This document shows positions 3,507-28,584 of a stretch of DNA of 30,969 bases, piece after piece. Positions within the stretch are counted from its first letter, which is position 1. Each line of letters begins with the position of its first letter. The DNA comes from Clostridia bacterium (GTDB lineage Bacteria > Bacillota > Clostridia > Christensenellales > Aristaeellaceae). The notes beneath the pieces were generated by a model, which was given only the letters and a program-made list of their open reading frames with translations, searched no databases and was not told the origin of the DNA. The stretch lies in NCBI GenBank assembly GCA_045599485.1, contig JAZRWA010000050.1, forward strand, positions 1-30,969, in the 5' to 3' direction. Position numbers and translations under genes: made by a program.

Positions 3507-3559
3507 GGGTTTTCCTCCCTGATATGGATTTGTCCCAACGGGACATTAATACAGATATA

Positions 3560-6899: not shown

Positions 6900-6970
6900 G
6901 CAAAAAATGTTTGCGACTCCGATAAAAATATGATATGATAATAGAACCAAAAACAAGGAGGACTTTTCTT

Positions 6971-7663: not shown

Positions 7664-7760
7664 CAATTTTCCAAAGGCTTCGGCCTTTCGGAAGAATCCT
7701 GAACATACGCCCCTGCAGTGCATGAAACCTCATGTGTGCAGGGGCGTTATGCTGCCTGTA

Positions 7761-7813
7761 AATAAAAACGGAGGAGAGCCTTGCTGCCTGAAAGGCACTG
7801 CCCGGCTCTCCCC
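7761..7813 (-). terminator. intrinsic terminator for the 7830..8576 gene
   Basis: On the minus strand, a GGGGAGAGCC...GGCTCTCCTC stem is followed by CGTTTTTATTT. Confidence 0.6.
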
Positions 7814-7829
7814 GATGGAAAGAACGATA

Positions 7830-8576
7830 TTACTTGACGATGGTGATGGCGTTGATCTGCTTCATACCCAGATCAAACAGTTCTTCGGTGGGCATGTACA
7901 CGTCCTCGCTGTCGCCGACCACGTTGATGGAGATCAGCACGCTGCTGTTGCTGAAGCGGCAGGGCACATACATGACCGCGCTCTGATAATACTTGACAGC
8001 GCCCGTCTCGGTATCGGTGTTGCTGTAGGCGTAGTTGAACCAGTAACCGGTGCCGCTGGGAGCAGTGAAGCTCTCGATCTCGGAAACGGTGCCGTTTTCG
8101 CCCGCGTAGTTCAGCATGGTGGGACGAACATATTCAGCCATCTCCTTGGGGCTGCGGGCCGCCACGGGAGAAACATAGATCATATCGATGGGGCTGTTTT
8201 CATCGGTGGGGATGAATGTAAAATCGGTCTTGATGTTTGCACCGTTCACGCTGGTGGTCAGCGGTCCGTTGTATTTGAAGCCTTCGATCGCCTCAACATC
8301 AGCCAGATGATAATACTTGCTGTTCTTGCCCGGGGTGCGCTCGGCGATGAGCCAGTTATCCGCCTTGCCCACGACCGCGCCGTTGCGGACCACCAGGGAT
8401 CCGTCATCATAGAAACCGTAATAGCCCACGACCAGCAGTACGATCACAGCCACAAGGGCCATGCCCGTCACCATCAGGGTGCGGCGGGTACGCTCGGTCT
8501 GGTCCTTCCACCATTCAGTAAAGGTGCGCTCCCTGGGTTTTACATACTTCGGCTTACGGCGATAATGCTTTGCCAT
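7830..8576 (-). CDS. hypothetical single-pass membrane-anchored protein
   Basis: Basic N-terminus (MAKHYRRKPKYVKPRERT), one TM segment (MVTGMALVAVIVLLVVGYY), then a soluble domain. TAA stop. Confidence 0.6.
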   Translation of the reverse strand: MAKHYRRKPKYVKPRERTFTEWWKDQTERTRRTLMVTGMALVAVIVLLVVGYYGFYDDGSLVVRNGAVVGKADNWLIAERTPGKNSKYYHLADVEAIEGFKYNGPLTTSVNGANIKTDFTFIPTDENSPIDMIYVSPVAARSPKEMAEYVRPTMLNYAGENGTVSEIESFTAPSGTGYWFNYAYSNTDTETGAVKYYQSAVMYVPCRFSNSSVLISINVVGDSEDVYMPTEELFDLGMKQINAITIVK

Positions 8577-8747
8577 TTTTCTTTTCCATCCTTTTTCTTT
8601 TTTACGACTGCATTATAACACAGCAGCAGGAAAAATACAACGACAGATGCGTTTTGCGCGCGTTTGCATCCGCAAAAGAATACAAAAAATACCGCCCGTC
8701 CCGGCAGGAAAAAGGGCTTCCGTGTCTAAATAATATAAGGCAAATAC

Positions 8748-8823
8748 GGCGCGTTCGTCTAGTGGTCCAGGACAGCGGTCTCTAAAATCGCGAACATGGG
8801 TTCGAGCCCCATACGCGCTGCCA
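8748..8823 (+). tRNA. tRNA with anticodon CUA (decodes UAG); Glu-type architecture, not Pyl-type
   Basis: Hand-folded 76-nt cloverleaf: GGCGCGT|TC|GTCT|AGTGGTCCA|GGAC|A|GCGGT|CTCTAAA|ATCGC|GAAC|ATGGG|TTCGAGC|CCCAT|ACGCGCT|G|CCA. The acceptor stem has 7 bp (G1.U72 wobble) and the anticodon stem has 5 bp. U33 is present, the anticodon is C34-U35-A36 (8782..8784), and A37 follows. The T-loop is TTCGAGC, the variable loop has 4 nt, and the CCA end is encoded. Confidence 0.85.
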
Positions 8824-8825
8824 GC

Positions 8826-8872
8826 AGGGAAAATCAGTGATTTCAAGAAATTTCTGATTTTCCCTTATTTTA
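8826..8872 (+). terminator. intrinsic terminator after the tRNA gene
   Basis: 12-bp stem AGGGAAAATCAG ... CTGATTTTCCCT (8826..8865), followed by TATTTTAT. Confidence 0.6.
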
Positions 8873-8888
8873 TCGTCTTTTTTGCAGA

Positions 8889-9634: not shown

Positions 9635-9682
9635 AAATAAAAAGTATAATGCTGTCTTTGTGTCATGTCAAGGAGGAATCCC

Positions 9683-11524
9683 ATGCGGCTGCTTCGGCAT
9701 CGCCTCTTCGCGCCTGTCTGCCTTTTTTTGTTTATCTTTCTCCTCACCATTCTGAGTGCCCGGAGCCTCATCCTCTCGACGCCCTCCATCGCCCGAATGG
9801 AACAGGAGCCCCATCATGCGCTCTATTGCATCAGCAGCTTTGATCACGATGCATACGGCGCCTGCACGGCAACACTTCGTCCGGGAAATAATCAAATGCA
9901 GGGGATGCGTATCCTGATCCTCTCCCGCGAACAGATATCCCTTCGCATCAACGGCCGGGATGCCGTGCCTGAAGCCGGTTCGGTGACGGGTCTCATCCGC
10001 TCCTATACGCTGCCCGAGGAATACAACGATGTGCTTCTTTTGACTTTTTCCTCCGCACCGGGGGCGGCCGCTGTCTGCACAGACAAGACGGCGGCCACGC
10101 TGCTGAGCGGTCTGAACTTCGGCCTGCCCGTCTTCTATGGTATTCTGCTGGCACTCATCATCAGCAGCTTTACGATGCTCATGATTCGCCCCATCGCCAT
10201 GCTGCAGGTCTTTACAGCGTACCTGGTCTGTGTCTTCCTCTGGGGCGTGCGCAACTACCTGGGGAACATGATGGACCTGTATCCTCTGCTTGGCATCATC
10301 TCGGAATTCTGTTTTGATTTTGCCGTGGTCCTGGGCGCGGCAACCTGCCTGTTCTTCAGCAAGCGGAATGAGGCCTTGATGCCCATCACCTCTGCGCAAA
10401 TGGCCAAACTGCTGGCGGTCTGCATCCTTTTCACCATCCTCTCACAGCTGTTACCATAGGACGTGACGGGGTGGCTCAGATTTCTCAGCTATACTGTCAG
10501 CGGCATCATCCTCCTCTATTCCGTATGGAAGGGCGGCTCTACCCCCTGGTGTGTCCTGATCGGGCTTGCAATCACGCAGGGTGCCCGTTTTTCCATCATG
10601 CTGTTCGACCTCCTCGGCATGCCCGCGTGCTTTCTCCTGCCCTATCTTCGCGGGCCCCACATCTTCATGATGCCCTTCATCATCGGCTGCCAGCTGCACA
10701 TCAATTCTGTCTACGACAAAAAGTTTTGCGAAGCCGAGCAGCTGGCGGCAAAACTGAGTTAGAGCAACCGCCTGCTGGACAAAAAGGTGGAGGAGCGCAC
10801 CAGGGAGCTGCGCGACCAGGAGCAGATCCGCACCAACCTGATGACCAACATCTTCCATGATCTCCGCTCACCGCTGCTCATCATGCAGGGCTGCATGGAG
10901 CACTTAAACCGCGGAGAAAATGATCCAAAGTATCTGGAAGTGCTCACCGGCAGGCTCTCCTTCATCACAAAGCTGACGGAGGATCTGTTCAATGTCGTCA
11001 AACTCGAAGACAACACCATGCTCATGGAAACGGAGCCTGTGCCGATTAAGCCCCTGCTCGAACAGACCATCACAGGCTGCATGCCCATGCTGTAGGAAAA
11101 GCAGATCGGCCTCAACACGGAACTGGCGGATGGTATGCTGGCCTGGGGCGATGAGATCTGGCTGCAGCGCGCGCTGCAGAACCTCATCGTAAACGCTATC
11201 TACTATTCCCCGCGCGGCAGCGCGCCCATCGCGGTGCGGTTGTGGCGCGAGGACCAATGGATCGCCATCTCGGTATCCGACTCGGGCAGAGGCATCTCCG
11301 AGGAGGACCAAGCGCAGATTTTTGAAAGATACTACCGCGTAAGTGCTTCCGCGAAGCATTCATCGAGCGGCCTGGGGCTCTCCATTGCGCACAGGATCGC
11401 AGAGCAGCACCGGGGAGAGCTTACCGTGCAGAGTGAACTGGGTGCAGGCTCCTGTTTTACCATGCGCCTGCCGCTGTGGAGCACCGAGGTGGATTCGATC
11501 GTTCCTGCCGAAAACACCGATTAA
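9683..11524 (+). CDS. multi-TM sensor histidine kinase; single reading frame containing three in-frame TAG codons
   Basis: Track ORFs 9665.., 10463.., 10787.. and 11135.. all share one frame. They are separated only by TAG at 10457..10459, 10760..10762 and 11093..11095. ATG at 9683 sits 6 nt after AAGGAGG. H-box FHDLRSPL, N-box LQNLIVNAIYYS, G-boxes DSGRGI and GLGLSI. TAA stop. Confidence 0.8.
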
Positions 11525-11765: not shown

Positions 11766-12686
11766 ATGAAAGCGTTGAAACGTTTTGCCGGTGCTGCCTG
11801 CGCGCTGATGCTGGCTGTATCCGGCACAGCCCTGGCCGATTACAAGCCCGGCACGTACGAGGAAGTCGTGCGCGGCATGGGCGGTAAGGTATACTTTGAG
11901 ATCACTTTTGATGAGACCTCTCTGGTCGACATCAAGATCACCAAGCACCACGAGACCGAGGGCTTCGGCGACCGCGCCATCGAAAACGTGATCCCCGCGA
12001 TCATTGCCGCCCAGTCCACCGAAGTCGACAACTGGTCAGGCGCAACCATTACGTCCGAAGCCATCAAGAAGGCCGTTACCCAGGCCATGGAAGAGGCTTA
12101 TGTAGAAGGCGAAGCCGCTCCCGCAGGGGCTGCCTTCGTGCCCGGCACGTATGAAGAAGTCGTGCGCGGCATGGGCGGAAAGGTGTACTTTGAGATCACT
12201 TTTGACGAGAACTCTCTTGTCGACATCAAGATCACCAAGCATCACGAGACCGAAGGCTTCGGCGACCGCGCCATTGAGAACGTGATCCCCGCGATCATTG
12301 CCGCCCAGTCCACCGAGGTCGATAACTGGAGCGGTGCCACGATCACGTCCGAAGCCATTAAAAAGGCCGTCACCCTCGCCATGGAAGCGGCGGCTGTGCC
12401 TGCTGCCGCGGAAGCCATCTACAAGCCCGGCACGTATGAGGAAGTCGTCCGCGGCATGGGCGGAAAGGTGTACTTCGAGATCACCTTTGATGAGACTTCT
12501 CTTGTCGATATCAAGATCACCAAGCATCACGAGACCGAAGGCTTCGGCGACCGCGCCATCGAGAACGTGATTCCCGCAATCCTTGCCGCCCAATCCACCG
12601 AGGTCGACAACTGGTCCGGTGCCACCATCACGAGCGAAGCCATTAAGAAAGCCGTCACCCAGGCCATGGCAGAGGCTGCCAATTAA
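11766..12686 (+). CDS. exported protein made of three tandem FMN_bind domains (predicted ApbE flavinylation substrate)
   Basis: Sec signal peptide MKALKRFAGAACALMLAVSGTALA. Three ~95-aa units each contain GGKVYFEITFD...ETEGFGDRAIE...VDNWSGATITSEAIKKAV (FMN_bind pattern with the Dxx[ST]GAT motif). TAA stop. Confidence 0.85.
   Translation: MKALKRFAGAACALMLAVSGTALADYKPGTYEEVVRGMGGKVYFEITFDETSLVDIKITKHHETEGFGDRAIENVIPAIIAAQSTEVDNWSGATITSEAIKKAVTQAMEEAYVEGEAAPAGAAFVPGTYEEVVRGMGGKVYFEITFDENSLVDIKITKHHETEGFGDRAIENVIPAIIAAQSTEVDNWSGATITSEAIKKAVTLAMEAAAVPAAAEAIYKPGTYEEVVRGMGGKVYFEITFDETSLVDIKITKHHETEGFGDRAIENVIPAILAAQSTEVDNWSGATITSEAIKKAVTQAMAEAAN
11841..12683 (+). repeat. three tandem near-identical coding repeats (units start at 11841, 12135 and 12420)
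   Basis: The same ~250-nt block recurs with periods of 294 and 285 nt. The protein units are almost identical and differ mainly by synonymous or linker changes. Confidence 0.85.
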
Positions 12687-12763
12687 TCAATATTTTCCGG
12701 ATCCCCCCTGCGCTTTCGCGCGGGTGCGTATAGATCACAAGATCAAACAGGAGGTTACAACAA

Positions 12764-14341
12764 ATGAAGGACATTTCCAGAAGACAATTCCTCAAGGGCG
12801 CCGCGGCCGGTACCGTCGCCGCTGCCAGCGTCGGCATGCTGGGCACTTCCGCCATGGCGGCTGCTGTCAAGTCCACCGATGTGAAGTGGGATGCTGAATA
12901 CGATGTGGTCATCGTCGGTTACGGCGCTGCCGGCGCTACCGCCGCCATCACCGCTGCTGACAAGGGTGTCAAGGTTCTGCTGACCGAAAAGTGCCCCGAA
13001 GGCCAGGAGGGCGGCAACACCAAGTACTCCGGTCAGGGTCTGCAGTGCTTCGAAGGCAAGGAAAACGCCATCACCTACTACAAGAGCCTGCGCGGCTTCT
13101 TCAACACTCCCTCCGATGCCGTCATTGAAGCCTATGCCGATAAGGTCGCCGAAATGCGTGAGTGGCTGATCTCCCTGGGCGCTGACCCCGTAAAGCTGGA
13201 CGACTACAAGGGCACCGGCGAGCCCTGGCGCTCCAAGGGTGAATATCCCGAACTGGTTGGCGCCGGTCACATGCTCTACTACTGCGTCTCCGGCAACAGC
13301 TTTGACGGCGCTTTCTACAACCTGCTGCAGGACAACGTGGATGACCGCAGCGACAAGATCGATGTCTGGTTCGAAGCTCCTGCCCAGCACCTGGTGCAGG
13401 ATCCCGAGACCAAAGAGATCCTGGGCGTTCAGATCTGCAAGGAAGGCACTGTGATGAACGTACGCGCCAAGAATGGCGTCATCCTGACCACCGGCGGCTT
13501 CGAGAACAACCCCCAGATGGTGCAGGACTACCTGCAGCAGCCCTATGTGCAGCCCTACGGCTCCCTGTACAACACCGGTGACGGCATCAAGATGGCTCAG
13601 GAAGTCAATGCCGACCTGTGGCACATGAGCAACGCCGCCGGCTTCCTGTGGTGCTACCAGCCCCCGAAGGCCTCCCGTGCCATGCCCATCCGCACCGCCG
13701 CCAAGGGCATCTTTGTCGGCCCCTCCGGTGAGCGCTACATGGATGAGACCCAGTCCACCCGTCATGGCCGCATCTACTTCGCCGGTCGTTACATCCAGAT
13801 GCCCTCCCCCCTGCCCGCTTTCATGATCATGGACTCCGACGCGATCAAGTCCGGTAAGCTGTTCAGCTCCTTCTCCGCCAACAACGAGCAGGAGATCGCC
13901 GACGGCTACTTCATCACCGCCGACACCGTGGAAGAACTGGCTGACAAGATCGCTGCCCAGCTGCCCGAAGCTGTCCATCGTCCCTATGCTGCCACCACCT
14001 TCCAGCAGAACCTGGTGAGCACCATTGAAAAGTGGAACGCTTCCTGCGACGCCGGCAAGGACGAGCGCTACGAGCGTCCCGCCAACACCCTGACCCCCAT
14101 CAAGAACGGCCCGTTCTATGCTGTGGAGATCGGTATCGAAATGTACAATACGCAGGGCGGCCCCGTCCGCAACGAAAAGGGTCAGGTCATCGACCTGGAC
14201 GGCAACCCCATTCCCCACCTGTTCTCTGCCGGCGAGCTGGGCGCCATCTGGTCCGACTCCTACAACGGCGGCGGCAACCTGGGTGAATGCGTGGCCTTCG
14301 GCCGCATCTCCGGCGAGAACGCCGCGAATGGCCTGGTCTGA
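12764..14341 (+). CDS. Tat-exported FAD-dependent oxidoreductase (fumarate-reductase / 3-ketosteroid-dehydrogenase-like flavoprotein)
   Basis: Twin-arginine signal SRRQFLKGAAAGTVAAASVG. FAD motif DVVIVGYGAAGATAA. C-terminal LFSAGELG... block typical of FAD_binding_2 proteins. TGA stop. Confidence 0.85.
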   Translation: MKDISRRQFLKGAAAGTVAAASVGMLGTSAMAAAVKSTDVKWDAEYDVVIVGYGAAGATAAITAADKGVKVLLTEKCPEGQEGGNTKYSGQGLQCFEGKENAITYYKSLRGFFNTPSDAVIEAYADKVAEMREWLISLGADPVKLDDYKGTGEPWRSKGEYPELVGAGHMLYYCVSGNSFDGAFYNLLQDNVDDRSDKIDVWFEAPAQHLVQDPETKEILGVQICKEGTVMNVRAKNGVILTTGGFENNPQMVQDYLQQPYVQPYGSLYNTGDGIKMAQEVNADLWHMSNAAGFLWCYQPPKASRAMPIRTAAKGIFVGPSGERYMDETQSTRHGRIYFAGRYIQMPSPLPAFMIMDSDAIKSGKLFSSFSANNEQEIADGYFITADTVEELADKIAAQLPEAVHRPYAATTFQQNLVSTIEKWNASCDAGKDERYERPANTLTPIKNGPFYAVEIGIEMYNTQGGPVRNEKGQVIDLDGNPIPHLFSAGELGAIWSDSYNGGGNLGECVAFGRISGENAANGLV

Positions 14342-14377
14342 CAAGCCCGTATAGCCTTTATCTGAATAACAATTCAA

Positions 14378-14413
14378 CAGAGCCCGCAACTAAGCGGGCT
14401 CTGCCTTTTCTTT
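14378..14413 (+). terminator. intrinsic terminator after the flavoprotein gene
   Basis: CAGAGCCCGC-AACTAA-GCGGGCTCTG stem-loop, followed by CCTTTTCTTT. Confidence 0.7.
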
Positions 14414-14500: not shown

Positions 14501-15508
14501 TTAATCCTTACTCTTCTTTGCAAAGTTCCACGCGCTTTCGCACATATCCTCCAGCGTATGGATGGCTTCCCAGCCCAGCAGCGTTTTTGCCTTTGATGCA
14601 TCGGCCCAGAAGGCGGGCAGATCGCCGGCTCTGCGAGGACCGAAATTGTAAGACAATTTGATACCGTTCACCCGTTCAAACGTATCCACCAGCTCCTGTA
14701 CCGATACACCGTGTCCCGTGCCCAGGTTGACGGCCTCCGCACCGTGATGGTTTTCCGCGTATTCCAACGCCTTCAGGTGACCCACAGCCAGGTCCACCAC
14801 GTGCAGGTAATCGCGCAGACATGTGCCGTCCGGCGTCGGATAATCGTTGCCGAAGATCGTCAGCTTTTTCAGCTTGCCCATTGCCACCTGATTGATATAG
14901 GGCATGATGTTGTTGGGGATGCCGTTCGGATCGTCGCCCAGCAGCCCGGAGCCATGCGCGCCGATCGGGTTGAAATAGCGCAGCAGCACCGCACAGAAAT
15001 CCGGATGCACGGCTGCGTAATCCGTCAGAATGCGTTCGATCATCACCTTGGTCCAGCCATAGGGACTGGTCGAGCAGATGGCCGGCATGTCTTCCTTGTA
15101 GGGGTACGGATTGTTCGGGCCATACACTGTCGCGGAGGAGGAGAAAATAAACCGTTTGCAGCCGAACTCTTCCATGACCTCCAATAGTGTCATGGTGCTG
15201 TCCAGATTGTTGCGGTAATACGCAAGAGGCTCTTCCACGCTTCTGCCGACCGCCTTGAAGCCCGCAAAATGAATGACAGCATCCACAGGCGATTCGGAAA
15301 ACGCTTGCCGCAAACCGCCACGGTCCGCGCAATCCACCTGAAAGAAAGCAGGCCTTGTCCCCGTGATCTGCTCGATACGATCGATCACATCCGCCTTGGC
15401 ATTGGACAGATCATCCACAACAGTCACCTGATACCCGGCGTTTTGCAACTCCACCATCGTATGGCTGCCGATGTACCCGGCGCCGCCTGTTACCAATACA
15501 TTCATCAA
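14501..15508 (-). CDS. galE: UDP-glucose 4-epimerase
   Basis: MMNVLVTGGAGYIGSH Rossmann motif, YGWTK catalytic motif, full length of 335 aa. RBS GGAGGA. TAA stop. Confidence 0.9.
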   Translation of the reverse strand: MMNVLVTGGAGYIGSHTMVELQNAGYQVTVVDDLSNAKADVIDRIEQITGTRPAFFQVDCADRGGLRQAFSESPVDAVIHFAGFKAVGRSVEEPLAYYRNNLDSTMTLLEVMEEFGCKRFIFSSSATVYGPNNPYPYKEDMPAICSTSPYGWTKVMIERILTDYAAVHPDFCAVLLRYFNPIGAHGSGLLGDDPNGIPNNIMPYINQVAMGKLKKLTIFGNDYPTPDGTCLRDYLHVVDLAVGHLKALEYAENHHGAEAVNLGTGHGVSVQELVDTFERVNGIKLSYNFGPRRAGDLPAFWADASKAKTLLGWEAIHTLEDMCESAWNFAKKSKD

Positions 15509-16998
15509 AGGTCCTCCGTATTGACGCTCTCGATGAAACGCTCAAAGGCCGCCCGGCCTTCGGCATTCCGTTTGTATACGCCCGCGTGCTCCAGCACCAT
15601 GGCAAACACCTTGCCCACTTCGACACGCAGGATCTTTCCAGTGTTTTCTTTCGTAAAGGAATACTGCTACTTCAGTTCCGCTGCCCAGGACGCGTGCTTT
15701 TCCAGTGTGTCCGTCAGCGGAAGGTCATGGATCAGCGCGTTTTCCAAATCGGCCAGTTCCCGCTTAAGCCGGGCAGGCAGTACCGCCAGGCCCATGACCT
15801 CGATCAGACCGATGTTTTCTTTCTTGATGTGATGCAGCTCTGCATGCGGATGATAAACGCCCAGCGGATGCTCTTCATTCGTGATGTTGTTGCGCAGCAC
15901 CAGATCAAGCTCGTAATCCTCACCCCTGCGCCGAGCGATGGGCGTAATGGTATTATGCGGCACACCGTCTGTTTCGGCAAAAATGAACGCGGAAGCGTCC
16001 GTGTAAAACCGCCAATGTTCAAGGATACGATCCGCAAGCGCTGTCAGCCGCTCCGGATCGCTGCCTGTCAGGCGCAACACACTGAGCGGCCACTTCACAA
16101 TGCATGCGCGGATATCTTCAAACCCCATAAAGGACACCGTTTTTTCGGCGGGTGCCTTTTCCATGGGGAAAGTAAAGTGTCCGCCCTGAAAATGCTCATG
16201 GCTCAGAATACTGCCGCCCACAATGGGCAGATCCGCGTTGCTGCCCACAAAGTAGTGCGGGAAGGCCGTCACAAAATCCAGCAACTTGCGAAAAACTGAA
16301 CGATCGATGACCATCGGCGTATGCTGACAGTTGAAGACGATACAGTGTTCGTTGTAGTACACATAAGGACTGTACTGCAAAAACCACTGTTCGCCCGCCA
16401 CGCTGACGGGAATCACGCGATGATTCTGCCGCGGCGGCTGTTTTATGCTGCCGGCATAACCCTCGTTTTCGGCACACAGCTGACATTTGGGGTAGCCGGA
16501 AGGCTTTGCGCTGCGGCTCGCCGCAATGGCTTTGGGATCCTTTTCCGGCTTACTCAGGTTGACGGTGATCACCAGGTCGCCGTACTCAGTCGCCACTTCC
16601 CAGCGCAGGTCTTTGGCGATGCGGTAGCGGCGAATGTAGTCCGTATCCTGCGAAAATGTATAGTACCAGTCGGTGGCTTCTTTGGGCGATTGTGCATACA
16701 GATCGGCAAAGCGGCACCGCACCTCATGAGGGCGGGGCGTCAGAATGCCCATCAGGCGGGTATCCAGCAGATCACGGCTTGTCACATCGTCCGGGCATAC
16801 TCCGCGCCGGACGGCGTCATCCAGCAAACCTTTCAGTATTTCCTCCAGCGGCATATCCACGCCCTCGGATGCTGAATACGCATCCAGGGACAATGCGTCC
16901 AGCAGTTGATTTACAATGAAGGTGCTGTCGCATGCCTCGATAAGCCCGTGCCGGATGCCGTAACGGATCAAAGAACTCAGGAATTCGTCGTTGCTCAA
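15505..16998 (-). CDS. galT: galactose-1-phosphate uridylyltransferase (type 2, Firmicutes-like) with one in-frame TAG
   Basis: TTG start at 16998 after AAGGAGGAAGAAC. The track ORF stops at TAG 15667..15669, but the frame continues for 53 more codons (QYSFTKENTGKILRVEVGKVFAMVLEHAGVYKRNAEGRAAFERFIESVNTEDL) to TGA 15505..15507. That TGA overlaps the galE ATG in an ATGA arrangement. Confidence 0.8.
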
Positions 16999-18229: not shown

Positions 18230-19204
18230 TTACCTTACGCGAAGAACAACTTTGCCGATGTTTTCGCCATTCTGAAGGATCGCATGGGCCGCCGCCGCCT
18301 GTGCCATCGGCAGTACTTTGTAAATGGTCGGACGAATTTCGCCACTTTCCAACTTAGGCCAGACATCACGAACCAAAGCATTAAGCAACTCTGCTTTTTC
18401 TTCTACACTGCGTTTGCGGAGCATGCTTCCCTTGAATACAATGCCACGGGTCAAAACAGCCCGGAGCGGAATATTTGCAGTTGTTCCGGCCAAAGTAGAA
18501 ATCAAGACCCAGCGGCAACCTTCATTGACATAAGGGAAGCATTGTCCGATTGTGTCTCCCGCCAGACAGTCGATGGCAACATCCACGGGATGACCCTTCT
18601 CTGCTTCCCGTTTCAGTACATCAGCTGTATCCTATGCGGATGTATCGATCACAACGTCCGCATGCAGATGCGAGATTTTTTCTTTAATATCAGCATTCAG
18701 TACGGATGTAATGACAAAGGCTCCAAAAGCCTTCGCCATCGGAATGCCTACGGAGGCCAGACCACTGGCGCCAGCTGGGAAGAATAACGTCTCGCCCGGC
18801 TTGAAGGCACCTTCTCCGAACAGGTTCAGATAACAGGTAGCATATGCTTCGGGAAGAGACGCCGCTTCTTCAAAGGACAAACCTTTCGGAATGGGCATCA
18901 CCATATTCTGCGGAACAGCCGCATATTCCGCATACCCACCGCCGCCCAGCAAGGCACATACCGGATCGCCGACTTTCCACCGGGTCACGCCTTCGCCCAC
19001 TGCGCTGACAACACCTGCCACCTCCAGACCCATCCATTCAGGCCAGCCTTTGGGAGAAGGATAGGTGCCTGCACGCTGAAGCAAATCTGCTCTGTTCAGT
19101 GCCGCCGCATGCACCTCAATTACGACTTTGCCAGCTTCGGCTGCGGCATCCGGCACTTCACTCCAAACGAGATTCCGTTCCTTGTCAATCAACATGGCAT
19201 ACAT
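18230..19204 (-). CDS. NAD(P)H:quinone oxidoreductase / zinc-type alcohol dehydrogenase superfamily protein with one in-frame TAG
   Basis: Track ORFs 18632..19249 and 18230..18586 share a frame and are joined across TAG 18632..18634. MDR-family pattern (AAALNRADLLQRAGTYP...; AGASGLASVGIPMAKAFGA; C-terminal GKVVL). ATG at 19204 after GGAGG. TAA stop. Confidence 0.8.
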
Positions 19205-19220
19205 CGGTTTCAGCCTCCGT

Positions 19221-20288
19221 TTATTCGTTTTGATACATGATTTCACCATTCAGCAATGTCAGCGTGCATTTATATCCCCGGTCGATCTGGAATGCTTTCC
19301 CGTCTTCTGCAGCAAGGGAAAAATCAATATTCCTCTCATCCAGAACCGCAATGTCAGCTGGTCCGTTCAGGCAAAGTCTCCCCCACTCGGGCTGGTTCAA
19401 CGTATCTGCAGCAGAAGTGGTCACAGCACGAAGCACTGCCTCTTCCGACATTCCAAGAGCACGGAACAGACTCATGCAGGCGGTCAAACCGTATATACCA
19501 CCCCTGTTATAAGCGTTCAGCCTTGTAAGATCGGTACTGATGGTAGTTGGCCATATAGATTGAGCTGCTGCAGCCAACAGTACGTCACGATCGGTATGAA
19601 CATACCCCGCATGACCGGTATCCAGAATGATTCCCTTTTTCTGCGCCGATTTCAGACATTCAAATTTTTCAGTCATGGCATTATGCACTCCGCCATGATA
19701 GATATGCGTAAGGATATCCCCTGCGGATAATGTATCCACGATTTCCGACATCGGCACCGGAGAATGAGAACAGTGAACGGTCACCTTCAGGTTCCGTTTT
19801 CGTGCAAAGTCACACACTTCTTTCAACGAGGTTATCGATTGTACTTCTGAAATGGTTGTGTCGAAATAGATCTTGACACCTGCCGCCCTGTTTCCGAATG
19901 CCTCCAGAAGTCTTTCTGTCTCCGCAAAGCTGGCGTGATCATTGTGAATCTGAGTACATACGAATACCACGCTTTTTACCCGGAACAGTTCCAGAAGATG
20001 CCGGTCTCCTTTTTCCGCACCGCATTCGGCAGTGGCGGTCACTCCGAAAGGCAGACAGCCCAGTTCCGCCGGCGTACCGAACCGATCGGTGGAAATTCCA
20101 TTCAGATGCGTATGGATATCCACCAAACCCGCCGATACGATTCGACCCTTGGCATCATACACATATTCCGCTTCAAAGCCGTCTGTATTTCCAAGGTCTG
20201 CAATTTTGCCATTCTGGATGGCGATGTTCCCCTAGAAAAAACGTTCACCATCCCATATCCGGCCGTTTCTGATCAAGATTCTTTCCAT
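19221..20288 (-). CDS. amidohydrolase-family metallohydrolase (deacetylase/dihydroorotase-like) with one in-frame TAG at codon 19
   Basis: ATG at 20288: MERILIRNGRIWDGERFF-TAG-GNIAIQNGKIADLG...GLVDIHTHL. The N-terminal beta-strand motif and the metal-binding HxH lie on opposite sides of TAG 20232..20234, in one frame. TAA stop. Confidence 0.75.
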
Positions 20289-20309: not shown

Positions 20310-22070
20310 TTACTGATATCTTCCGTCAGGGTTGATGGTCAGATTGCGGAAACGTTCCACATCCACCTTGGGCTTACGGTCAGGGGTCAGAATACCGTTC
20401 TGTTCCTGCTATACATCTGTCAGCTGCGTATATACATATCCCTGACAATACGGGATGGCGCGTGCTGCATCCGTCAGTGATTTATACCGCTCAAAGAACG
20501 CCTCTTCTCCGGCGACCTTATCATGATATCCCCATGAGCCGTTGTCTTTATCGTCAAACGCGATCCCGCCGTATTCCGTCAGAAGGAAGGCTTCCTTTCC
20601 GCTCCATTCCTTGCCATCACAGTAAGCCATGCGGTGATCGCAGGCATGCTCTGTAATTTCTTCCCGGCTTGCAAAATGCTTAGCGAGTACATCACCCGTT
20701 GCGGCATAGTCATGCAGACCGAAAATATCGCTTTGAACGCATTCCCAACCATCATTGGTGGAGACCATTCTCGTTCCATCCAATGCTTTTACCTGGTAGT
20801 ACAGCATGTTTGCAGTAGCCTGCATCTGCTTGTTGGCGTACATTCGATCCAAGCCCCAGCTTTCATTCACAGGAACCCAGGTAATAACCGATGGATGATT
20901 GAAATCACGCTCGATTCCACCCGTCAGCGTTTCGCTGGTATTGACCGCTGCTTCATCCGTAAATTCGTACGCGCTCGGAATCTCCTCCCATACGAGCAAG
21001 CCCAACTTGTCCGCCCAGTAGTAATAACGCGGGTCTTCCAGCTTCTGATGCTTTCTTGCGCCGTTATAGCCCAGTTTCAGCGTCCACTCGATATCTGCTT
21101 TGATGGCTTCGTCGCTAGGCGGTGTAATCAACGATTCCGACCAATAGCCCTGATCCAGTACCAAGCGCTGGTAGATGGGCTTGTTGTTCAACAGCACACG
21201 GCCATCCGCAACATGTGCCTTGCGCATGCCAAAGTAAGTGCTGACTTCATCGCCGGTATCCAGTTCCAGCTTCACATCGTACAATTTCGGGGTCTTTGGT
21301 GTCCATCGCACAAGCTGGTGCAGCGTACTGCCGTCCACCATGTCCACCACCATGCGCTGCGTGCGCTGATCCATCACCATGGTCTGTTCCCGCACAGTCG
21401 TTCCTTCCATGGAGACTGTTATCTTCACGCGTACGGGACTTTGCGGTATTTCATTCAGCGTGACCTGAATTGAAGCCGTACCCAGATCCACATCTGGGGT
21501 GACATGGGCGGTTTTCACATACACTCTGCCCGCTTCTTCCAGATATACAGTTTGCCAGATGCCGCTCGTGGGCGTATACCAGCAACCAAACCACTGATCC
21601 TTCCACAGCTGCTTGCCACGCGGCTGGGTACAATCTCTGGCGTCCTCCACACGGACGCACAGATCGTTCTCCCCCTCCCGGAGATACGGCGTAATGTCAA
21701 ACGCGAAAGGGGTGTATCCTCCCTTATGGGTACCCACACATTGGCCATTCACATAGACCATCGCCGCAAAATCCACTGCTCCGAAACGAAGCAGCAGCTT
21801 ATTTCCGGAGGCGATCGCCGGCTTTTCAAAAGTACGCCGGTACCACAACACCGGATGATGGGTTGCATCGTGGATGCCGCTCAGCTCGCACTGATAACAG
21901 AAAGGCACCATGATCTTCTTATCCAGCGTCACATCGGGATTGAACCATTTTTCGGCAAGACCTTTGTTTTCGTCATCATAACCAAACTGCCATTCACCAT
22001 TCAGGTTGACCCAATGAGGGCGGATAAAGTCGGGACGCGGGTGTTCGGGACGCGGAATCATAGTGCTCAT
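20310..22070 (-). CDS. glycoside hydrolase family 2 enzyme with one in-frame TAG near the C-terminus
   Basis: N-terminal RPEHPRPDFIRPHWVNLNGEWQF GH2 pattern with TIM-barrel region. The track ORF ends at TAG 20409..20411, but the frame continues QEQNGILTPDRKPKVDVERFRNLTINPDGRYQ to TAA 20310..20312. RBS GGGAGGAA. Confidence 0.8.
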
Positions 22071-22099: not shown

Positions 22100-23116
22100 T
22101 TATTCTCTCAGCAAAGACCAGTCAAATACATTGGCCAATGGCATTCTTTGCTCCGTACACAGACGCTTATACAACAAACCACAGTCCTTTGGCGATGCCA
22201 CTTCATGGATCATGGGGCGGACCATCATCTTGCCATTTTCCAGAAAACCAAGAATCATCCGGAAATCATCATGTCGAGTCCAATATCCTTCTCTCGAGTC
22301 ACCTGTCGGACGGACAAAATTGTGAGCACCAATGAGTTGAATACCGGGACGATGTACCTCGCTGTAAAAATCGATAGGGCAGTCGGATACACGGGTACAA
22401 CCGGTCAGGGAAATTCTTCCCATGAAAGCCGCAACCGAGAGCGCTTGCTTAAGGGCACGGGAAGAACCGGTTACTTCTACATTGGCATTGATCATTCGAT
22501 CACCTGTCAGTTTGCGCACTTTCTCCCGAAAGTCGGAGTCCGCCGGACTCAACGTATAATCTGCACCGAGTTTGGATGCAATTTCACAGCGTTCCTCATC
22601 AAAATCCACGCCAATCACCGGCAGTCCACCGCTGAGTCTGGCTGCCTGCACCGCAAACATGCCCAAAATTCCCAATCCGGTCACCATTGCCGTTTCGCCC
22701 ATTTGCAAGCGGGTTTTTCGGAGTCCCTGAACTCCCATGCTACCCACGATAACCATTGCGGCTTCCATCTGGTCGACATTCTGGGTAAAGGGATAATAGC
22801 CGTCTCCGTTCTTTGTAAAGGCAGCCTTAACATACTGGCTATGTCCCAGATGATCCGTCAATACCCGATCTCCAATTTGAACATCGGTAACATTTTTGCC
22901 CACCTCAACCACATGACCTGCACCGGAATACCCAAGCAGTTTGGGGAATTTCTGTGCGACATTGGGCGTATTGATCAGATTTGCTTTTTCCGTTCCGGCG
23001 CTGACGGCAGTATAGTCATTCTGAATCAATACTTCATCATCACGCAGTTCGCCCAGTTCGACTTCAACAAGCTCCGCTTTCTCAACGTCCGTAAACAATA
23101 TCTGTTTTGTTTTCAT
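22100..23116 (-). CDS. zinc-dependent alcohol/polyol dehydrogenase (MDR family)
   Basis: Track ORF with ATG at 23116 after GGAGA. Contains GHSQY..., the GLGILGMFAVQAARLSG Rossmann motif, and other MDR-like blocks. TAA stop. Confidence 0.8.
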   Translation of the reverse strand: MKTKQILFTDVEKAELVEVELGELRDDEVLIQNDYTAVSAGTEKANLINTPNVAQKFPKLLGYSGAGHVVEVGKNVTDVQIGDRVLTDHLGHSQYVKAAFTKNGDGYYPFTQNVDQMEAAMVIVGSMGVQGLRKTRLQMGETAMVTGLGILGMFAVQAARLSGGLPVIGVDFDEERCEIASKLGADYTLSPADSDFREKVRKLTGDRMINANVEVTGSSRALKQALSVAAFMGRISLTGCTRVSDCPIDFYSEVHRPGIQLIGAHNFVRPTGDSREGYWTRHDDFRMILGFLENGKMMVRPMIHEVASPKDCGLLYKRLCTEQRMPLANVFDWSLLRE

Positions 23117-23151
23117 TGTTTTATCTCCGTAATTTTTTTCGAATGAAGGGC

Positions 23152-24150
23152 TCAAAGAATGCCGCAGGCCTGCAGCGTAGCACGCTGCAAGGCGATCTCA
23201 TAATCATATGTGAAAGGATTCTCTTTTTCTCCGCGAATATAGGCTGCAAAGTCCTTGACCTGCTCGTCATAGCGGCCAACCTGTGTTTTGAACCCCGTCA
23301 AATATTGCTTCGAATCATGATAGGTAGGCGGGTTGTCTTTGCTGAAAGACACCGAAATCATGGAAGGGCCTTCCAACGGCTTGACTTCCACTGTGCCTTT
23401 CGTGCCGCAAATGACCAGTTGGCGTCTGCCAAAGCCATTGACTTCACGAGAGGTCGTGCGTACAGTGCAGCTGGCATTGGGATAAGTGACCACTGCCAAC
23501 GCGTTATCCTGCAACGCCACATCCTGCGGAATCGTTCGTTTGATAAAAGGAACGACCGATTCGGGATTGGGACCCAGGATTTGAAAGATCATGTCAAACA
23601 GGTGACAGCCGAAGATATACATGGTTCCGCATTTGAACGACTTGCTGAGCCATTGGCGGTACGGTTCGCCATGAGCCGTGCTCATCTGTGTATCGATTTC
23701 GAAAATCTCCCCCAGTGCACCGCTCTTTGCAATGGCAATGGCCTCCTGAATGACCGGGTTATAGCGGTACATATATCCCATCTGAACAACCAGATGCTTT
23801 TCGCGTGCCGTGTTCATGACCTCAGCAAACTCATTGATATCTTCGCCACCGGGTTTATCCATATGAATATGATAGCCCTTCCGAAGACATTTCAAAGCTG
23901 CCTGATCCAGGTCTGGCACGTCCGTTTCCACAGAAATAGCCTCCAGATCCGGGATGGCAAACAATTCCTATTCACTCAATCTGGGGAGTCCAATATAACC
24001 TGGCAGATTACCGCGCTTTTCCCACCAGGATTCATCGGGTTCGCAAACACCTACCACATCAAAAATTTCCGGGAAGCGACGAAAGCATTTCATTTTTTCT
24101 TCGCCATGGTTGTGCCCCAGTCCGTACTGCGCGATTTTGATCTTATTCAT
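23152..24150 (-). CDS. Gfo/Idh/MocA-family oxidoreductase with one in-frame TAG
   Basis: ATG at 24150 after GGAGGA. The N-terminal Rossmann segment MNKIKIAQYGLGHNHG...VVGVCEPDE is joined in frame across TAG 23968..23970 (LSE-TAG-ELFAIPDLEAISVETDV) to the remainder of the protein. TGA stop. Confidence 0.8.
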
Positions 24151-24244
24151 ATTGCATCCTCCTGCCTGCGATTTGCCCATCTTGAGCTGTTTTCCAAGTC
24201 AGTATAACCCTCGTCACCGTTCCGGGACAATTTGCTTTGCGTCA

Positions 24245-26458
24245 TCAGGCATTTGTCTTTCGGCTTTGACGATACTCACTGGGAGTCATTCCCTCCTGAA
24301 GTTTGAATTTGCGTAAAAAAGATGGAACATCATTATAACCAACAGCATGGACAAGCGTTTGAACAGTATCTGATCCGGAAATAAGCCTCCGTTTGAACTC
24401 TTCCATGCGAAGGTATGCAATATACTGAACAAAAAGCATGCCTACATCCTGCCGCAGGATGTCATTGATCTGAGACGGGCGCATCTATATCTGTTGAGAA
24501 ACAATGTGAATGGACATTTCATAATCGGTAAAATGGCTATGAATGTATTCCATAACACGGCGCTTGTTAGAAAACTGTCGTTCCTCCTCTAACTCCGATT
24601 TCTTCATACAGGCAAATTGAATCATTTCACAGCCATGTAGAATCAGAGTATCTGTCGTAGGTGATTGAATCATTTTTTCAATCATATCATCCGGGATCGC
24701 AATTCCTTCTTCTTTCATTTGCATAACCAAGGATTGCACCAAGGCATTCACCCTGAACTGAAACATCAGCACAGAAGCAGCAGAGGAAGAAAGAGTGACG
24801 ATTAATTCCTTCCAATATACAAACGCCTGATCTGTCTGAATTCTTTGAATGGATTCCATCAGAAGCGAGCATATCTGAGTTTCCTCCCATCCATTGCTTT
24901 TAGGCGGAGTCATAAAGCATATAGCTTCCGTTCCCGGTCTGCGCAGGCGAATTGCAGCAGCTGCATGATTGAAGCTTTCGGACAAAGCAAGCGGGTCGTC
25001 AATTACAGATCCCACACCGATCACTGCACGATGATATCCTCTTTGACGTATGGTACCGAGCCATTTTTCTGCCAATGATTTCATTGTCTCGTGTTTCTAT
25101 CCCGCCGCATCGCTAAAATTAACTATAACAGCCAATGCATGTTCATTGGGCAGTTCTCCCGGCAGCATACGGATTCCTTTGGGTTCCTGCAAAAAAATCG
25201 CTGATACATTGGATACTGTCATCTCCGCCTTTTCACCGGGAAGTATGTAAAACACGCAGAAATGGACATGTGGAAAATGAACGTCAGAACAGGTGAGCAA
25301 ATAGTCAAGCGCATCTTTGGACTTGATCTTTCCGAAAACCAATTGCTGTACCAGGTGGCTTGCCGCATATAGATGAATCTGCCCCAACTTCAACGTCAGG
25401 ATTTCATTCTCTGTTGTTAACTGTTCATGGTACATTTTTAGAAACGCAAGCTCATTTTCATTTGTTAACAGTTTTCGTCCGCCGGAGAGCTATGTAACAT
25501 ACTTGCGGATTGGAAGAGCATTCGTAAAACTGATGAAGAGCGACAACACCATAAGAAGACCCGCAATTGCAGCAAACAGGATGCTTTGGGATGTGCGAAC
25601 GCTACGGATACTTTCAAAGAAGTTTTCCTATGTATCCAGCAGACAGAAACTGAGTGACCGAACACTGTTCAGAATTCTCAGCATTTCATAGCGTGTCCCG
25701 CTCTCCGCAAAAGAGAGCACACCTGTTCCGGTATGTTTAAGTATTACATTTTGATTGACCGGACTTTCTCCGGATGCATAAAACAGTCCCATAGCTTTGG
25801 TCGGATAGATGAGGACCGTACCGTTTGTTTCTCCCAAATAACTGCTGAACAAATCCTGGAGATATTCAGACGGCATCATATACAAAATCACTATGCTGCT
25901 CTCATGGTCTGGCGTAATAGAAAAAGGCACCAGATACACCAATTGATCACGTAAAGTCGCTTCCTGCGTTTTCAATCGAAGCAACGTGGAAGAGCGGCAA
26001 CTCATGATGGTCTTGTACAACTGACTCTGATCCGGATCATATTCTTTGGATAGATATTGCTGAAAAGCAGAATAGCTCTCACGTCCTTCACAACTATAAA
26101 TACTTTTATCGCCCCGGATATACACATAAATGCCGACTCGGTTATCAATCTTGGTTTTCATGGATTCCAGGATTGCTTTCAAAGCTGATTCATAAGCTAT
26201 ATTCACGATACGATTTTCACTCATCGTGAAGCACTGGCTGAGGGTATAATTACTTTCCAACATGAAATCAAAACGGTCAAGGAGTGTATCAAATTCGCTT
26301 ACTGCACTTTTAAACGAATCCAGCCGGGATGATGCTGTATACTGGATTGAAGACTGAACATTGCCGTTCACGATGATTGCGATAAAAATGAGCACAAAAA
26401 TAGAAGCCAAAAATGTAATCGTCAAATTTTGCAGGAGCATACTGCCTTTTTGTTTCAT
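24245..26458 (-). CDS. membrane-anchored AraC-family sensor/transcription regulator with four in-frame TAG codons
   Basis: A single frame runs from ATG 26458 (RBS GGGAGA) to TGA 24245..24247. It encodes TM1 (LTITFLASIFVLIFIAIIV), an extracytoplasmic domain, TM2 (ILFAAIAGLLMVLSLFISF, in the segment between two TAGs), a cytoplasmic region, and a C-terminal AraC HTH (GYNDVPSFLRKFKLQEGMTPSEYR). The TAGs are at 25628..25630, 25490..25492, 25097..25099 and 24485..24487. Confidence 0.75.
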
Positions 26459-26622
26459 TTTCTTTTTTCTCCCGACAGATATTAAATCCATTTTGTTCAT
26501 TATACCAACAGGTTTCTTTCTTTTCAACGGACCATTCAAGCTGTTTGTGCAAAACAAATCGAAAATGACGGAAAACAAATCAAAACTTACAAAACAGCAA
26601 AGGCAGTAATTTGCACAACAAA

Positions 26623-26651
26623 TTGTTATTTGCGTCTCATCTTCCTATAAT
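26623..26651 (+). promoter_or_regulatory. candidate sigma-A promoter of the sugar ABC operon
   Basis: TTGTTA at 26623..26628, 17-nt spacer, TATAAT at 26646..26651. A small AACAA-A-TTGTT palindrome overlaps the -35 element. Confidence 0.4.
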
Positions 26652-26734
26652 GGAATCAGAAAACCAACGAGCGCAATGCGCTACAGTTCTCACCTCCAAT
26701 AAAAAAAGATGAAACCAAGGAGCAATGGATCTAT

Positions 26735-27682
26735 ATGACAAATATCAGGCAGACCTTACCTCCGGCAAAACGAAGCTTCTGGCAAAGGCTGAAAACCGAC
26801 TTTCGGAAACACTGGATGGTATATGCAATGCTTCTGCCGATTCTCGCCTATTACTTGATTTTCAAGTACGGATCCATGGGATATCTTGCAATTGCTTTTG
26901 AGGATTTCAAACCGGTCAAAGGCATACTGGGAAGTAAATGGGTCGGATTCAAGAACTTCATCAAATTTTTCAGCATGGATACCAGTTCAAGGCTTATTCG
27001 CAACACGTTCTTGCTGAATTTTTATGATATCTTGTTCAGTTTTCCCGCCCCCATCCTGCTGGCTTTGATGATCAATTAGCTAACGCTGAAGCGGACAAAG
27101 AAGCTAATCCAAACTGTAAGCTATGTCCCCCATTTTATTTCCATGGTCGTCATTTGCGGCATGCTCAGAGAATTCTGCTCATCTGATGGTCTATTCAACC
27201 AGGTTCGCATGATGTTGGGACTTGAAGGCTACAACCTGCTGACAAATCCGCGCCTGTATCGTACGATTCATATCGGCAGCGGTATTTGGCAAAGTGTTGG
27301 CTGGAGCAGCATCATCTATCTGGCCACGCTGTCCGGTGTAGATACCCAGCTGTACGAAGCAGCTTATATTGACGGTGCTAACAAAATGCAGCGTATCATC
27401 CATGTTACGCTTCCGGCACTGGTGCCCATCATTACAGTTCAGTTCATCATGAGAATCGGACATATCATGTCAGTTGGCCATGAAAAGATTATTCTGTTGT
27501 ATAACGAGATGATTTTCGAAACAGCCGATGTAATCTCCACATATCTGTATCGTTACGCATTGCTGACCGGTAAATACAGTCTGGGTACCGCTGTTGGTCT
27601 GTTTAACTCTGTTATCAATATCATCATTCTCGTGATTGTCAACAGAACCTTCTCCAAGTTGACCGAGAACAGTCTGTGGTAA
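26735..27682 (+). CDS. LplB-type (COG4209-like) sugar ABC transporter permease with one in-frame TAG
   Basis: Track ORFs 26735..27079 and 27143..27682 share a frame. Across TAG 27077..27079 the sequence reads PAPILLALMIN-TAG-LTLKRTKKLIQTVSYVPHFISMVVICGML, a contiguous conserved block of this permease family. TAA stop. Confidence 0.8.
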
Positions 27683-27699
27683 AGGAGGACGTAGATACA

Positions 27700-28584
27700 A
27701 TGGCGATTGTAGAAAGCAAGAACCGCGGTGAAAAAATCTTCAATGCAGTTAATCTCAGCGTTCTCCTCCTGTTGACACTCGTTTTCTTCTATCCATTGTG
27801 GCATTGTTTGATGGCATCCTTCAGTGATCCTGCCAAGTTAATGCGGCATGTGGGCGGCCTTCTGTGGCCGGATGGTTTCAGTCTGAAAGGTTATGAAGCA
27901 GTACTAAAAAATCGTAACATCGGCATCGGTTACATGAACACCCTGTTCTATGTAGGCGTCGGCACCAGTCTTTCTATGCTTCTGACGATCATCGGCGCAT
28001 ATGCGTTGACCAGACAGGGCTTGATGCTGAAAAAGCCAATTATGGTGCTGATCGTGCTGACCATGTATCTTGGCGGCGGAATGATTCCGGATTTCCTAAT
28101 TATCCGTGATCTTGGTCTGTATGACAGCAGATGGTCTGTGATTCTCCTGACATCGATTACTACCTATAATTTGATGGTCATGCGCACCGCATTTTTGCAG
28201 ATTCCTCATTCTTTGGAAGAATCGGCCATGTTAGACGGTGCAAATGACTTCGTGATTCTGTTCAGAATCCTGCTGCCTGTTACAAAAGCTACCATCGCGG
28301 TTGTAACTCTCTTCTATGCAGTCGGACGTTGGAACGCTTGGTTTAACGCATCCATTTTCCTTCGCGATCGTGAAAAATATCCGCTGCAGCTGTTCCTGCG
28401 TGAAATTCTGATTTCGAGCACCGTGACCGGCGATGAAGGCTCTGCAGAAGACGGCGTCTACTATCTGTCTGAGTTGCTTAAGTATTGCACCATCATCGTA
28501 TCTACCGTTCCGATCCTGTGCATTTATCCATTTGTCCAGAAATATTTTGTTACCGGTGTAATGTTGGGCTCTGTGAAAGGATGA
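27700..28584 (+). CDS. LplC-type sugar ABC transporter permease
   Basis: Six-TM BPD_transp_1-type ORF containing the EESAMLDGAND EAA-loop motif. ATG at 27700 is downstream of AGGAGG. An earlier GTG at 27676 is a less likely start. TGA stop. Confidence 0.8.
   Translation: MAIVESKNRGEKIFNAVNLSVLLLLTLVFFYPLWHCLMASFSDPAKLMRHVGGLLWPDGFSLKGYEAVLKNRNIGIGYMNTLFYVGVGTSLSMLLTIIGAYALTRQGLMLKKPIMVLIVLTMYLGGGMIPDFLIIRDLGLYDSRWSVILLTSITTYNLMVMRTAFLQIPHSLEESAMLDGANDFVILFRILLPVTKATIAVVTLFYAVGRWNAWFNASIFLRDREKYPLQLFLREILISSTVTGDEGSAEDGVYYLSELLKYCTIIVSTVPILCIYPFVQKYFVTGVMLGSVKG

Follow-up and report, generated by a model that had tools for sequence, protein, structure and literature searches.

In-frame UAG codons and a glutamate-type CUA tRNA suggest that UAG encodes glutamate in a Clostridia lineage of the horse gut

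Which amino acid does UAG encode in a bacterium whose otherwise intact genes carry this codon in frame? The question arises from contig JAZRWA010000050.1 of a Clostridia bacterium, a stretch of 30,969 nucleotides that was analysed whole and is here called the window. A first-pass annotation, made from the letters of the window without database searches, had noticed a TAG in the gene of an LplB-type sugar permease and had proposed Glu as its meaning, with Gln as the alternative. The same ranking now comes from the alignment column at the LplB site, from a 6:2 tally of residues in close orthologs, from column scores that place Gln 7-15 nats below Glu, and from the relatedness of a tRNA with anticodon CUA (tRNA-CUA) to tRNA-Glu. 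We put the probability that the source organism reads UAG as glutamate at roughly 0.85.

UAG as a sense codon

Reading the window with TAA and TGA as the only stops gave 25 plausible genes comprising 9,589 codons. Thirteen TAG codons stand in frame in these genes, about 1.4 per 1,000 codons, spread over eight that are otherwise intact, and none of the 25 contains an in-frame TAA or TGA or a frameshift. Pfam domains cross or follow the TAGs in the genes that bear them, and full-length homologs align across the TAGs. In the LplB-type permease the BPD_transp_1 match occupies residues 104-302, so this domain crosses the TAG at residue 115. The HisKA and HATPase_c domains of a sensor histidine kinase lie 3' of all three of its TAGs, and the HTH_18 domain of an AraC-type regulator (residues 695-771) spans the TAG at residue 698. 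The TAG that the first-pass annotation had located in LplB is indeed codon 115 of the permease gene. Its other sequence contexts could be assigned as well: LSE-X-ELF is residue 71 of a Gfo/Idh/MocA oxidoreductase, ML-X-EKQI is residue 477 of the kinase and TDV-X-QEQNG is residue 554 of a GH2 glycosidase (Table 1).

A stop-to-sense reassignment of UAG is recognised by in-frame UAG within conserved, otherwise intact genes, and this is what the window contains. If the three stops are assumed to be about equally likely, the probability that random nonsense mutation would yield TAG 13 times out of 13 is about (1/3)^13. Gene structure thus demonstrates that UAG is translated in the source organism. 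The idea that the eight genes are pseudogenes was considered and ruled out: one and the same codon accounts for all 13 interruptions, with no frameshifts and no other stops among them.

The ends of genes say less. Of the 24 that are visible in the window, 14 are TAA, 10 are TGA and none is TAG. In five contigs from relatives with the standard code (L001, L003, L011, L015 and L025), 54 stops divide into 29 TAA, 22 TGA and 3 TAG. At that rate, zero TAG in 24 ends would occur with a probability of about 0.25, so the lack of TAG ends is not significant alone, because TAG is a rare stop in the relatives to begin with. This rarity does fit a codon that is easy to capture, and it would be the starting condition for a codon-capture route. 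The nearest relatives fetched by protein similarity use the standard code: the Gfo gene of L001 and one gene of L031 terminate at TAG.

The residue at UAG

Among 5.8 billion proteins searched were full-length LplB homologs of 246-398 amino acids that are up to 87% identical and align on both sides of the TAG. When the best 120 (55-87% identical) were aligned with MAFFT, the column at residue 115 was Glu in all 120. The nearest homolog (P0001/L031, 87%) has E at this position, and the corresponding codon is GAA or GAG in the seven loci that were fetched (62.9-80% amino acid identity). That Glu follows the conserved Asn in LplB homologs had been stated in the first pass, and the alignment bears this out.

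Close orthologs for the TAG columns were drawn from syntenic contigs (L001, L003-5 and L011-15), and columns were obtained for 12 of the 13 sites. Residue 206 of a quinone oxidoreductase (QOR) is E, encoded by GAA or GAG, in five of five related loci (52-84% identity), and the closest solved structure, PDB 4dup, has E at the same position. The Gfo/Idh/MocA site is likewise E (GAA or GAG) in five of five related loci. In the closest ortholog of the kinase (P0241, 72% identity), residues 265 and 366 are both E; the column at residue 477, which could be read only in distant kinases, holds A51 D19 E16 N13 Q5. Homologs of GalT, about 500 amino acids long, continue to align past its TAG, where the column is variable and shows no preference (E14 N12 K12 Q11 A11 and others). 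The single AraC ortholog recovered (L001, 46% identical) has Q at residue 317, E at 363, D at 494 and G at 698. No ortholog of the amidohydrolase was recovered, either in the homolog search or on the fetched contigs of relatives, and its TAG at codon 19 is unscored. A chimeric query, made by joining segments of the kinase, the amidohydrolase and the AraC regulator, returned mostly kinases; it gave kinase columns and none for the other two. Among the contigs that hold the nearest LplB and GH2 relatives (L024, L025, L026-28 and L031) there was neither a relative with the same code nor an amidohydrolase ortholog.

Ten TAG sites had a close ortholog that could be used, and the residue in that ortholog is Glu six times (LplB, QOR, Gfo/Idh/MocA, two kinase sites and one AraC site), Gln twice (GH2 and one AraC site), Asp once and Gly once. 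Each amino acid was also scored across the 12 columns by the sum of log(P(aa|column)/background), with four schemes of pseudocounts and down-weighting. Under all four, Glu ranked highest (+9.5 to +10.9 nats) and Gln next (-4.1 to +2.4 nats); no other residue exceeded -1.9 nats or came within 12 nats of Glu.

The alternative that deserves most attention is that UAG means Gln, with tRNA-CUA either charged directly by GlnRS or first loaded with Glu that GatCAB would then amidate. Gln is the verified meaning of UAG in crAss-like gut phages (PMC9523058), and it is the runner-up in every scoring scheme. If it held here, CAG-to-TAG, a synonymous C-to-T transition that is mutationally favoured and starts from an abundant codon (220 CAG codons in the mapped genes), should have dominated. 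Finding E at six of the eight sites where orthologs have E or Q would be the reverse of that expectation. A Glu code predicts synonymous GAG-to-TAG changes together with some tolerated Q-to-E changes, and six E sites beside two Q sites match this. Moreover, a Gln code needs E-to-Q replacements at three columns that are all E in orthologs (120/120, 5/5 and 5/5). We consider it unlikely.

Several observations nevertheless weigh against Glu. The main one is the GH2 site. The column in 120 homologs reads Q61 M37 E17 K2 H1 A1 I1, so that E makes up 14%; Q is present in every one of the six closest homologs (73-85%), and the codon is CAG in six of six fetched loci (80-83%). The first-pass view that the other sites would suit an acidic or amide residue understates the GH2 case, where Gln is not just compatible but present in all the closest orthologs. 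Residue 317 of AraC is also Q in its one ortholog. Four LplB paralogs, 43-44% identical, carry CAG at the position of residue 115, which makes Glu there less absolute than the word invariant would suggest. Placing E or Q (and also K or G) at the four sites covered by Pfam profiles changed the bit score by no more than 0.5 between E and Q and thus did not discriminate; this comparison is uninformative because superfamily profiles are too broad. Finally, the sample is small: 13 sites, three of them without an informative ortholog, and an AraC ortholog that is just 46% identical.

Table 1. Positions of the TAG-bearing genes, their in-frame TAG codons and the tRNA gene in the window
Feature	Position	Strand	Details
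LplB-type ABC sugar permease gene	26735..27682	+	315 codons, TAA end; Pfam BPD_transp_1; homologs to 87%
In-frame TAG, LplB codon 115	27077..27079	+	context PAPILLALMIN-X-LTLKRTKKLIQTVSYVPHFIS
Sensor histidine kinase gene, three TAGs	9665..11524	+	10457-10459 (residue 265), 10760-10762 (residue 366), 11093-11095 (residue 477)
In-frame TAG, GalT codon 444	15667..15669	-	gene 15505-16998
In-frame TAG, QOR codon 206	18632..18634	-	gene 18230-19249; ADH_zinc_N spans site
In-frame TAG, amidohydrolase codon 19	20232..20234	-	gene 19221-20288
In-frame TAG, GH2 glycosidase codon 554	20409..20411	-	gene 20310-22070
In-frame TAG, Gfo/Idh/MocA oxidoreductase codon 71	23968..23970	-	gene 23152-24180; NAD-binding domain, residues 20-136, spans site
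AraC-type regulator gene, four TAGs	24245..26578	-	25628-25630 (residue 317), 25490-25492 (residue 363), 25097-25099 (residue 494), 24485-24487 (residue 698)
tRNA, anticodon CUA (reads UAG)	8748..8823	+	Glu-type body, encoded CCA; ARAGORN; Rfam tRNA 55.5 bits

Composition is uneven along the window. The G+C fraction is 0.55-0.60 across most of the first 17 kb and 0.42-0.44 in the region from AraC through LplB to LplC (24000-28000). TAG density is highest in the low-G+C AraC gene, with four in 777 codons; this is also the gene whose best ortholog is just 46% identical. The G+C-rich half contains long antisense or overlapping open reading frames of 300-690 codons (1497-3560, 4022-5347, 6677-7723, 7722-8618, 12755-14389 and 23107-24207). 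Their translations, rich in G, A, V, D and H, are of low complexity; these frames are composition artefacts rather than genes and would inflate any naive count of open reading frames or TAGs. The LplB ortholog on two human-gut contigs (L026, 7560-8494; L027, 7560-8493) is called as two overlapping pieces, of 71-74 and 246 amino acids, which fits a frameshift or assembly error rather than a TAG. Elsewhere in the window, 11766-12686 (+) encodes a secreted protein with three near-identical repeats of about 90 amino acids (YKPGTYEEVVRGMGGKVYFEITFDE...SGATITSEAIKKAVT) that resemble an FMN-binding domain. It adjoins an FAD flavoprotein (12764-14341), and a similar flavoprotein at 1596-3506 (-) has a C-terminal domain of the same FMN-binding-like kind.

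The CUA tRNA and its charging

The window holds a single tRNA gene, which folds as a normal cloverleaf with anticodon CUA. By Sprinzl numbering, its acceptor stem has G1.U72, G2-C71 and C3-G70, followed by G73. The D-stem consists of G10-C25, U11-A24, C12-G23 and U13.G22, and the D-loop has nine nucleotides (A14 G15 U16 G18 G19 U20 C20a C20b A21). A46 is present and nucleotide 47 is absent. The anticodon loop is C32 U33 C34 U35 A36 A37 A38 on a stem of 5 bp, and the T-loop reads TTCGA. Under this numbering the molecule has every feature that the first pass had listed (U11-A24, U13.G22, A46, no 47, U35 and A37).

All of its best BLAST matches in three collections (E. coli genomes, plasmids and phages) are tRNA-Glu genes with anticodon UUC or CUC. 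They include tRNA-Glu genes in E. coli genomes, the tRNA-Glu(UUC) of a Methylibium plasmid and a tRNA-Glu(CUC) on a human-gut phage scaffold, and the D-arm of tRNA-CUA (GTCTAGTGGTCCAGGAC) is identical to those of two of the matched tRNA-Glu genes. Identity is 71% to E. coli tRNA-Glu versus 53-55% to E. coli tRNA-Gln. Judged by similarity, this tRNA is a derivative of tRNA-Glu. With E. coli tRNA-Glu(UUC) it shares U11-A24, the U13.G22:A46 triple, the missing nucleotide 47, bases 20a and 20b, U35, A37 and G73, and the D-arms of the two differ at one position. It differs from E. coli tRNA-Glu in its anticodon, CUA rather than UUC or CUC (hence C34 and A36), and in having G1.U72 rather than G1-C72 and G2-C71 rather than U2-A71.

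How would such a molecule be charged? The identity set of E. coli GluRS comprises the augmented D-helix (U11-A24, U13.G22:A46, no 47), U34, U35, C36 and A37, with G1-C72 and U2-A71 as weak determinants (PMC9976931). In tRNA-CUA the augmented D-helix is complete, and U35 and A37 are kept. Counting the other way, the strong determinants U34 and C36 are replaced by C34 and A36, which the reading of UAG requires, and both weak acceptor pairs are missing. GluRS would charge tRNA-CUA with Glu through the determinants that remain, and a non-discriminating GluRS would presumably already tolerate variation at base 36, which in the GluRS of T. thermophilus is read by Arg358.

The first pass had left open that a non-discriminating GluRS and then GatCAB might deliver Gln to UAG. 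Bacterial GatCAB requires U1, paired with A72, as a major determinant, and both G1-C72 and a supernumerary D-loop base block the enzyme (PMC2811023, PMC1635274). tRNA-CUA has G1.U72 instead of U1-A72, and its bases 20a and 20b make the D-loop two nucleotides longer than that of E. coli tRNA-Gln. Because of G1 and the two extra bases, we regard this transamidation route as unlikely. Glu on tRNA-CUA is predicted to be a poor substrate for amidation, with the proviso that G1.U72 lies outside the variants assayed in those two studies.

Direct charging by GlnRS is the other way to a Gln code, one that the first pass had not raised. The GlnRS identity set in E. coli is G73, U1-A72 or a weak 1-72 pair, G2-C71, G3-C70, G10, U35, G36, A37 and U38 (PMC9976931). 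Of these, tRNA-CUA has G73, the weak G1.U72, G2-C71, G10, U35 and A37. This acceptor end is friendly to GlnRS; in E. coli, amber suppressors whose 1-72 pair is destabilised are Gln-inserting, provided that the cell has GlnRS (PMC9976931). Some charging with Gln is thus conceivable if the organism has a GlnRS. Counter to this, U1, G3-C70 (here C3-G70), G36 and U38 are missing, and the tRNA body is of the Glu type rather than the Gln type. None of the genes for GluRS, GlnRS, GatCAB or RF1 (prfA) lies within the window. The tRNA alone is suggestive and not decisive; the alignments carry the verdict for Glu.

The mixture of a GluRS-type core with a GlnRS-friendly acceptor (PMC9976931) could also point to ambiguous decoding. 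UAG might stand for a blend of Glu and Gln, through partial mischarging or amidation, or it might be read through only in part, with RF1 terminating at some UAGs; either way, UAG would not stand for any one amino acid. The presence of both E-type and Q-type columns among the TAG sites, and a count of TAG ends that is not significant alone, would be compatible with this. The same mixture of columns is expected from a pure Glu code in which some Q-to-E substitutions occurred. The TAGs lie 5' of indispensable domains, namely HisKA and HATPase_c of the kinase, the AraC helix-turn-helix and the greater part of the LplB permease. A stop at these points would destroy the proteins, and readthrough must therefore be efficient. 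We think ambiguous decoding highly improbable.

That UAG could be pyrrolysine (Pyl), or some other residue, has next to no probability: ARAGORN labels the tRNA as tRNA-Pyl, a label that we take to derive from the anticodon alone because every CUA tRNA scanned received it, and residues besides E and Q score at least 12 nats below Glu. In true tRNA-Pyl the D-loop is short and lacks G18G19 and the anticodon stem has 6 bp, whereas tRNA-CUA is a canonical cloverleaf in which G18G19 is present, the D-loop has 9 nt, the anticodon stem has 5 bp and the T-loop reads TTCGA. Inspection of the 25 translations by eye, with Pfam profiling of the eight TAG-containing proteins, revealed no gene resembling pylS, pylB, pylC or pylD. 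The Pyl reading was ruled out on tRNA architecture and is effectively refuted.

The lineage, known codes and what a Glu code would mean

To find relatives of the tRNA, one genome per GTDB species was scanned for a Glu-type D-arm combined with a CUA anticodon. A copy identical at 76 of 76 positions occurs on L009 (JAKSQG010000048.1), a contig of the metagenome-assembled genome (MAG) Clostridia bacterium isolate Horse_feces223, which represents a sister species. The same two genes adjoin it: L009 5784-8000 and window 6645-8875 share a lipoprotein gene, a membrane-protein gene beginning MAKHY and the tRNA, in flanking DNA that is 87-92% identical. A fully identical tRNA despite such flanks argues for strong purifying selection on the tRNA and for a trait common to at least two species. 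Beyond the tRNA the two contigs part. On L009 a 966-codon open reading frame, which by eye resembles a helicase or restriction enzyme, is followed by an alpha-glucosidase; in the window a response-regulator and kinase pair follows. Synteny stops exactly at the tRNA, which places it at the boundary of a rearrangement or insertion.

Other searches for relatives of the locus returned less. The window proteins GalK, short-chain dehydrogenase (SDR) and FAD flavoprotein had no exact matches on record, and a metagenome scan with GalK found relatives at only 44-53%, with no useful synteny. The Glu-type CUA tRNA pattern had no matches among IMG/VR viral contigs.

Two further contigs carry CUA tRNAs of related appearance. 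L007 (JAZUQL010000089.1, from a Lachnospiraceae MAG) has at 507-1952 a stretch with a G+C fraction of 0.29 and a tRNA cluster Met-Asn-CUA, and its open reading frame 507-1496 contains four in-frame TAGs. The stretch looks like a TAG-recoded phage or prophage; a PHROGs scan of the L007 open reading frames gave no family matches. Its CUA tRNA is a different molecule from that of the window, yet it has a Glu-type D-arm, G1.U72 and G73. L010 (DAOTVV010000020.1, from an Anaerolineae MAG) encodes at 4380-4455 a Glu-like CUA tRNA, 70% identical to that of the window, with G1-C72 and A73. The L010 genome is G+C-rich and TAG is apparently an ordinary stop in it, as it seems to terminate the fliS-like, flagellin and TPR genes. 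This tRNA could represent a lone natural suppressor, or else tRNA-Glu(CUC) with a changed anticodon.

Codes in which UAG means Glu exist among eukaryotes. Peritrich ciliates read both UAG and UAA as Glu (NCBI table 30). In the eukaryote Blastocrithidia nonstop UAR is Glu (PMC12153298), and a further ciliate gives UAA and UAG different meanings, one of them Glu (PMC10553269). The eukaryotic UAG = Glu codes resemble that proposed for the source organism in the codon, in the amino acid and in a cognate decoder derived from tRNA-Glu. They differ in that termination is based on eRF1 and that several of them also reassign UAA, whereas here UAG alone is reassigned, UAA and UGA remain stops, and the organism is a bacterium, in which RF1 and RF2 share termination.

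A parallel in setting is genetic code 15 of gut phages (crAss-like and Lak phages), in which TAG is Gln, as verified by metaproteomics (PMC9523058; see also PMC10879173). These phages and the window have in common a suppressor tRNA-CUA, a gut microbiome and in-frame TAGs in otherwise normal genes. Unlike the phages, the window belongs to a cellular chromosome, with a gal operon, ABC transporters and two-component systems, and its TAGs lie in chromosomal housekeeping and catabolic genes. Its columns also favour Glu over Gln, its tRNA body is of the Glu type, and the pattern is absent from IMG/VR viral contigs.

Bacterial reassignments of UGA, to Trp (code 4) or to Gly (code 25), have been described (PMC8629427, PMC13462651, PMC13092985). 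Like the change proposed for UAG here, they are genome-wide, turn a stop into sense, employ a cognate tRNA and concern a stop that was rare beforehand. The UAG change differs in codon and in amino acid, and it implicates RF1 rather than RF2. According to the 2021 Codetta paper, every known change of a bacterial stop codon involves UGA, and the cases covered in papers from 2026 are still UGA cases only. Bacterial code changes in the searched literature are limited to UGA reassignments and arginine-codon changes, and UAG recoding is limited to phages (Gln), pyrrolysine and eukaryotes. We found no report of a bacterial UAG-to-Glu code in this literature, a search whose reach excluded most subscription-journal papers.

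We think it likely that a genus-level lineage of horse-gut Clostridia, represented by the window and Horse_feces223, has turned UAG from a stop into Glu genome-wide by means of a tRNA-Glu-derived CUA tRNA, presumably with RF1 lost or restricted. Such a code would be the first in cellular bacteria to turn UAG into a canonical amino acid and the first in any prokaryote to give UAG the meaning Glu. In the mechanism that we propose, the dedicated tRNA, a tRNA-Glu body with anticodon CUA, would pair with UAG. GluRS would charge it through the kept determinants (U11-A24, U13.G22:A46, no 47, U35 and A37), and GatCAB would ignore the product owing to G1 in place of U1 and the two supernumerary D-loop bases. 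RF1 would have been lost, restricted or no longer able to compete at UAG. New UAG codons would then have arisen mostly from GAG by synonymous G-to-T changes, after the capture of an already rare stop. A minority could have come from CAG by C-to-T, each being a conservative Gln-to-Glu replacement at a tolerant site.

The consequences begin with annotation. Gene callers that apply the standard code truncate or split 8 of the window's roughly 25 genes, and such genomes are thus mis-annotated in public databases; correct translation of their proteins depends on knowing the amino acid at UAG. If the Glu code of this free-living gut bacterium is real, it is a new natural genetic code, and RF1-dependent termination at UAG is dispensable in a Clostridia genome of normal size and moderate-to-high G+C content. 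The natural tRNA-Glu(CUA)/GluRS pair that it would provide is of interest to genetic-code engineering. For the organisms themselves, such a code should act as a two-way barrier to gene exchange and phage infection.

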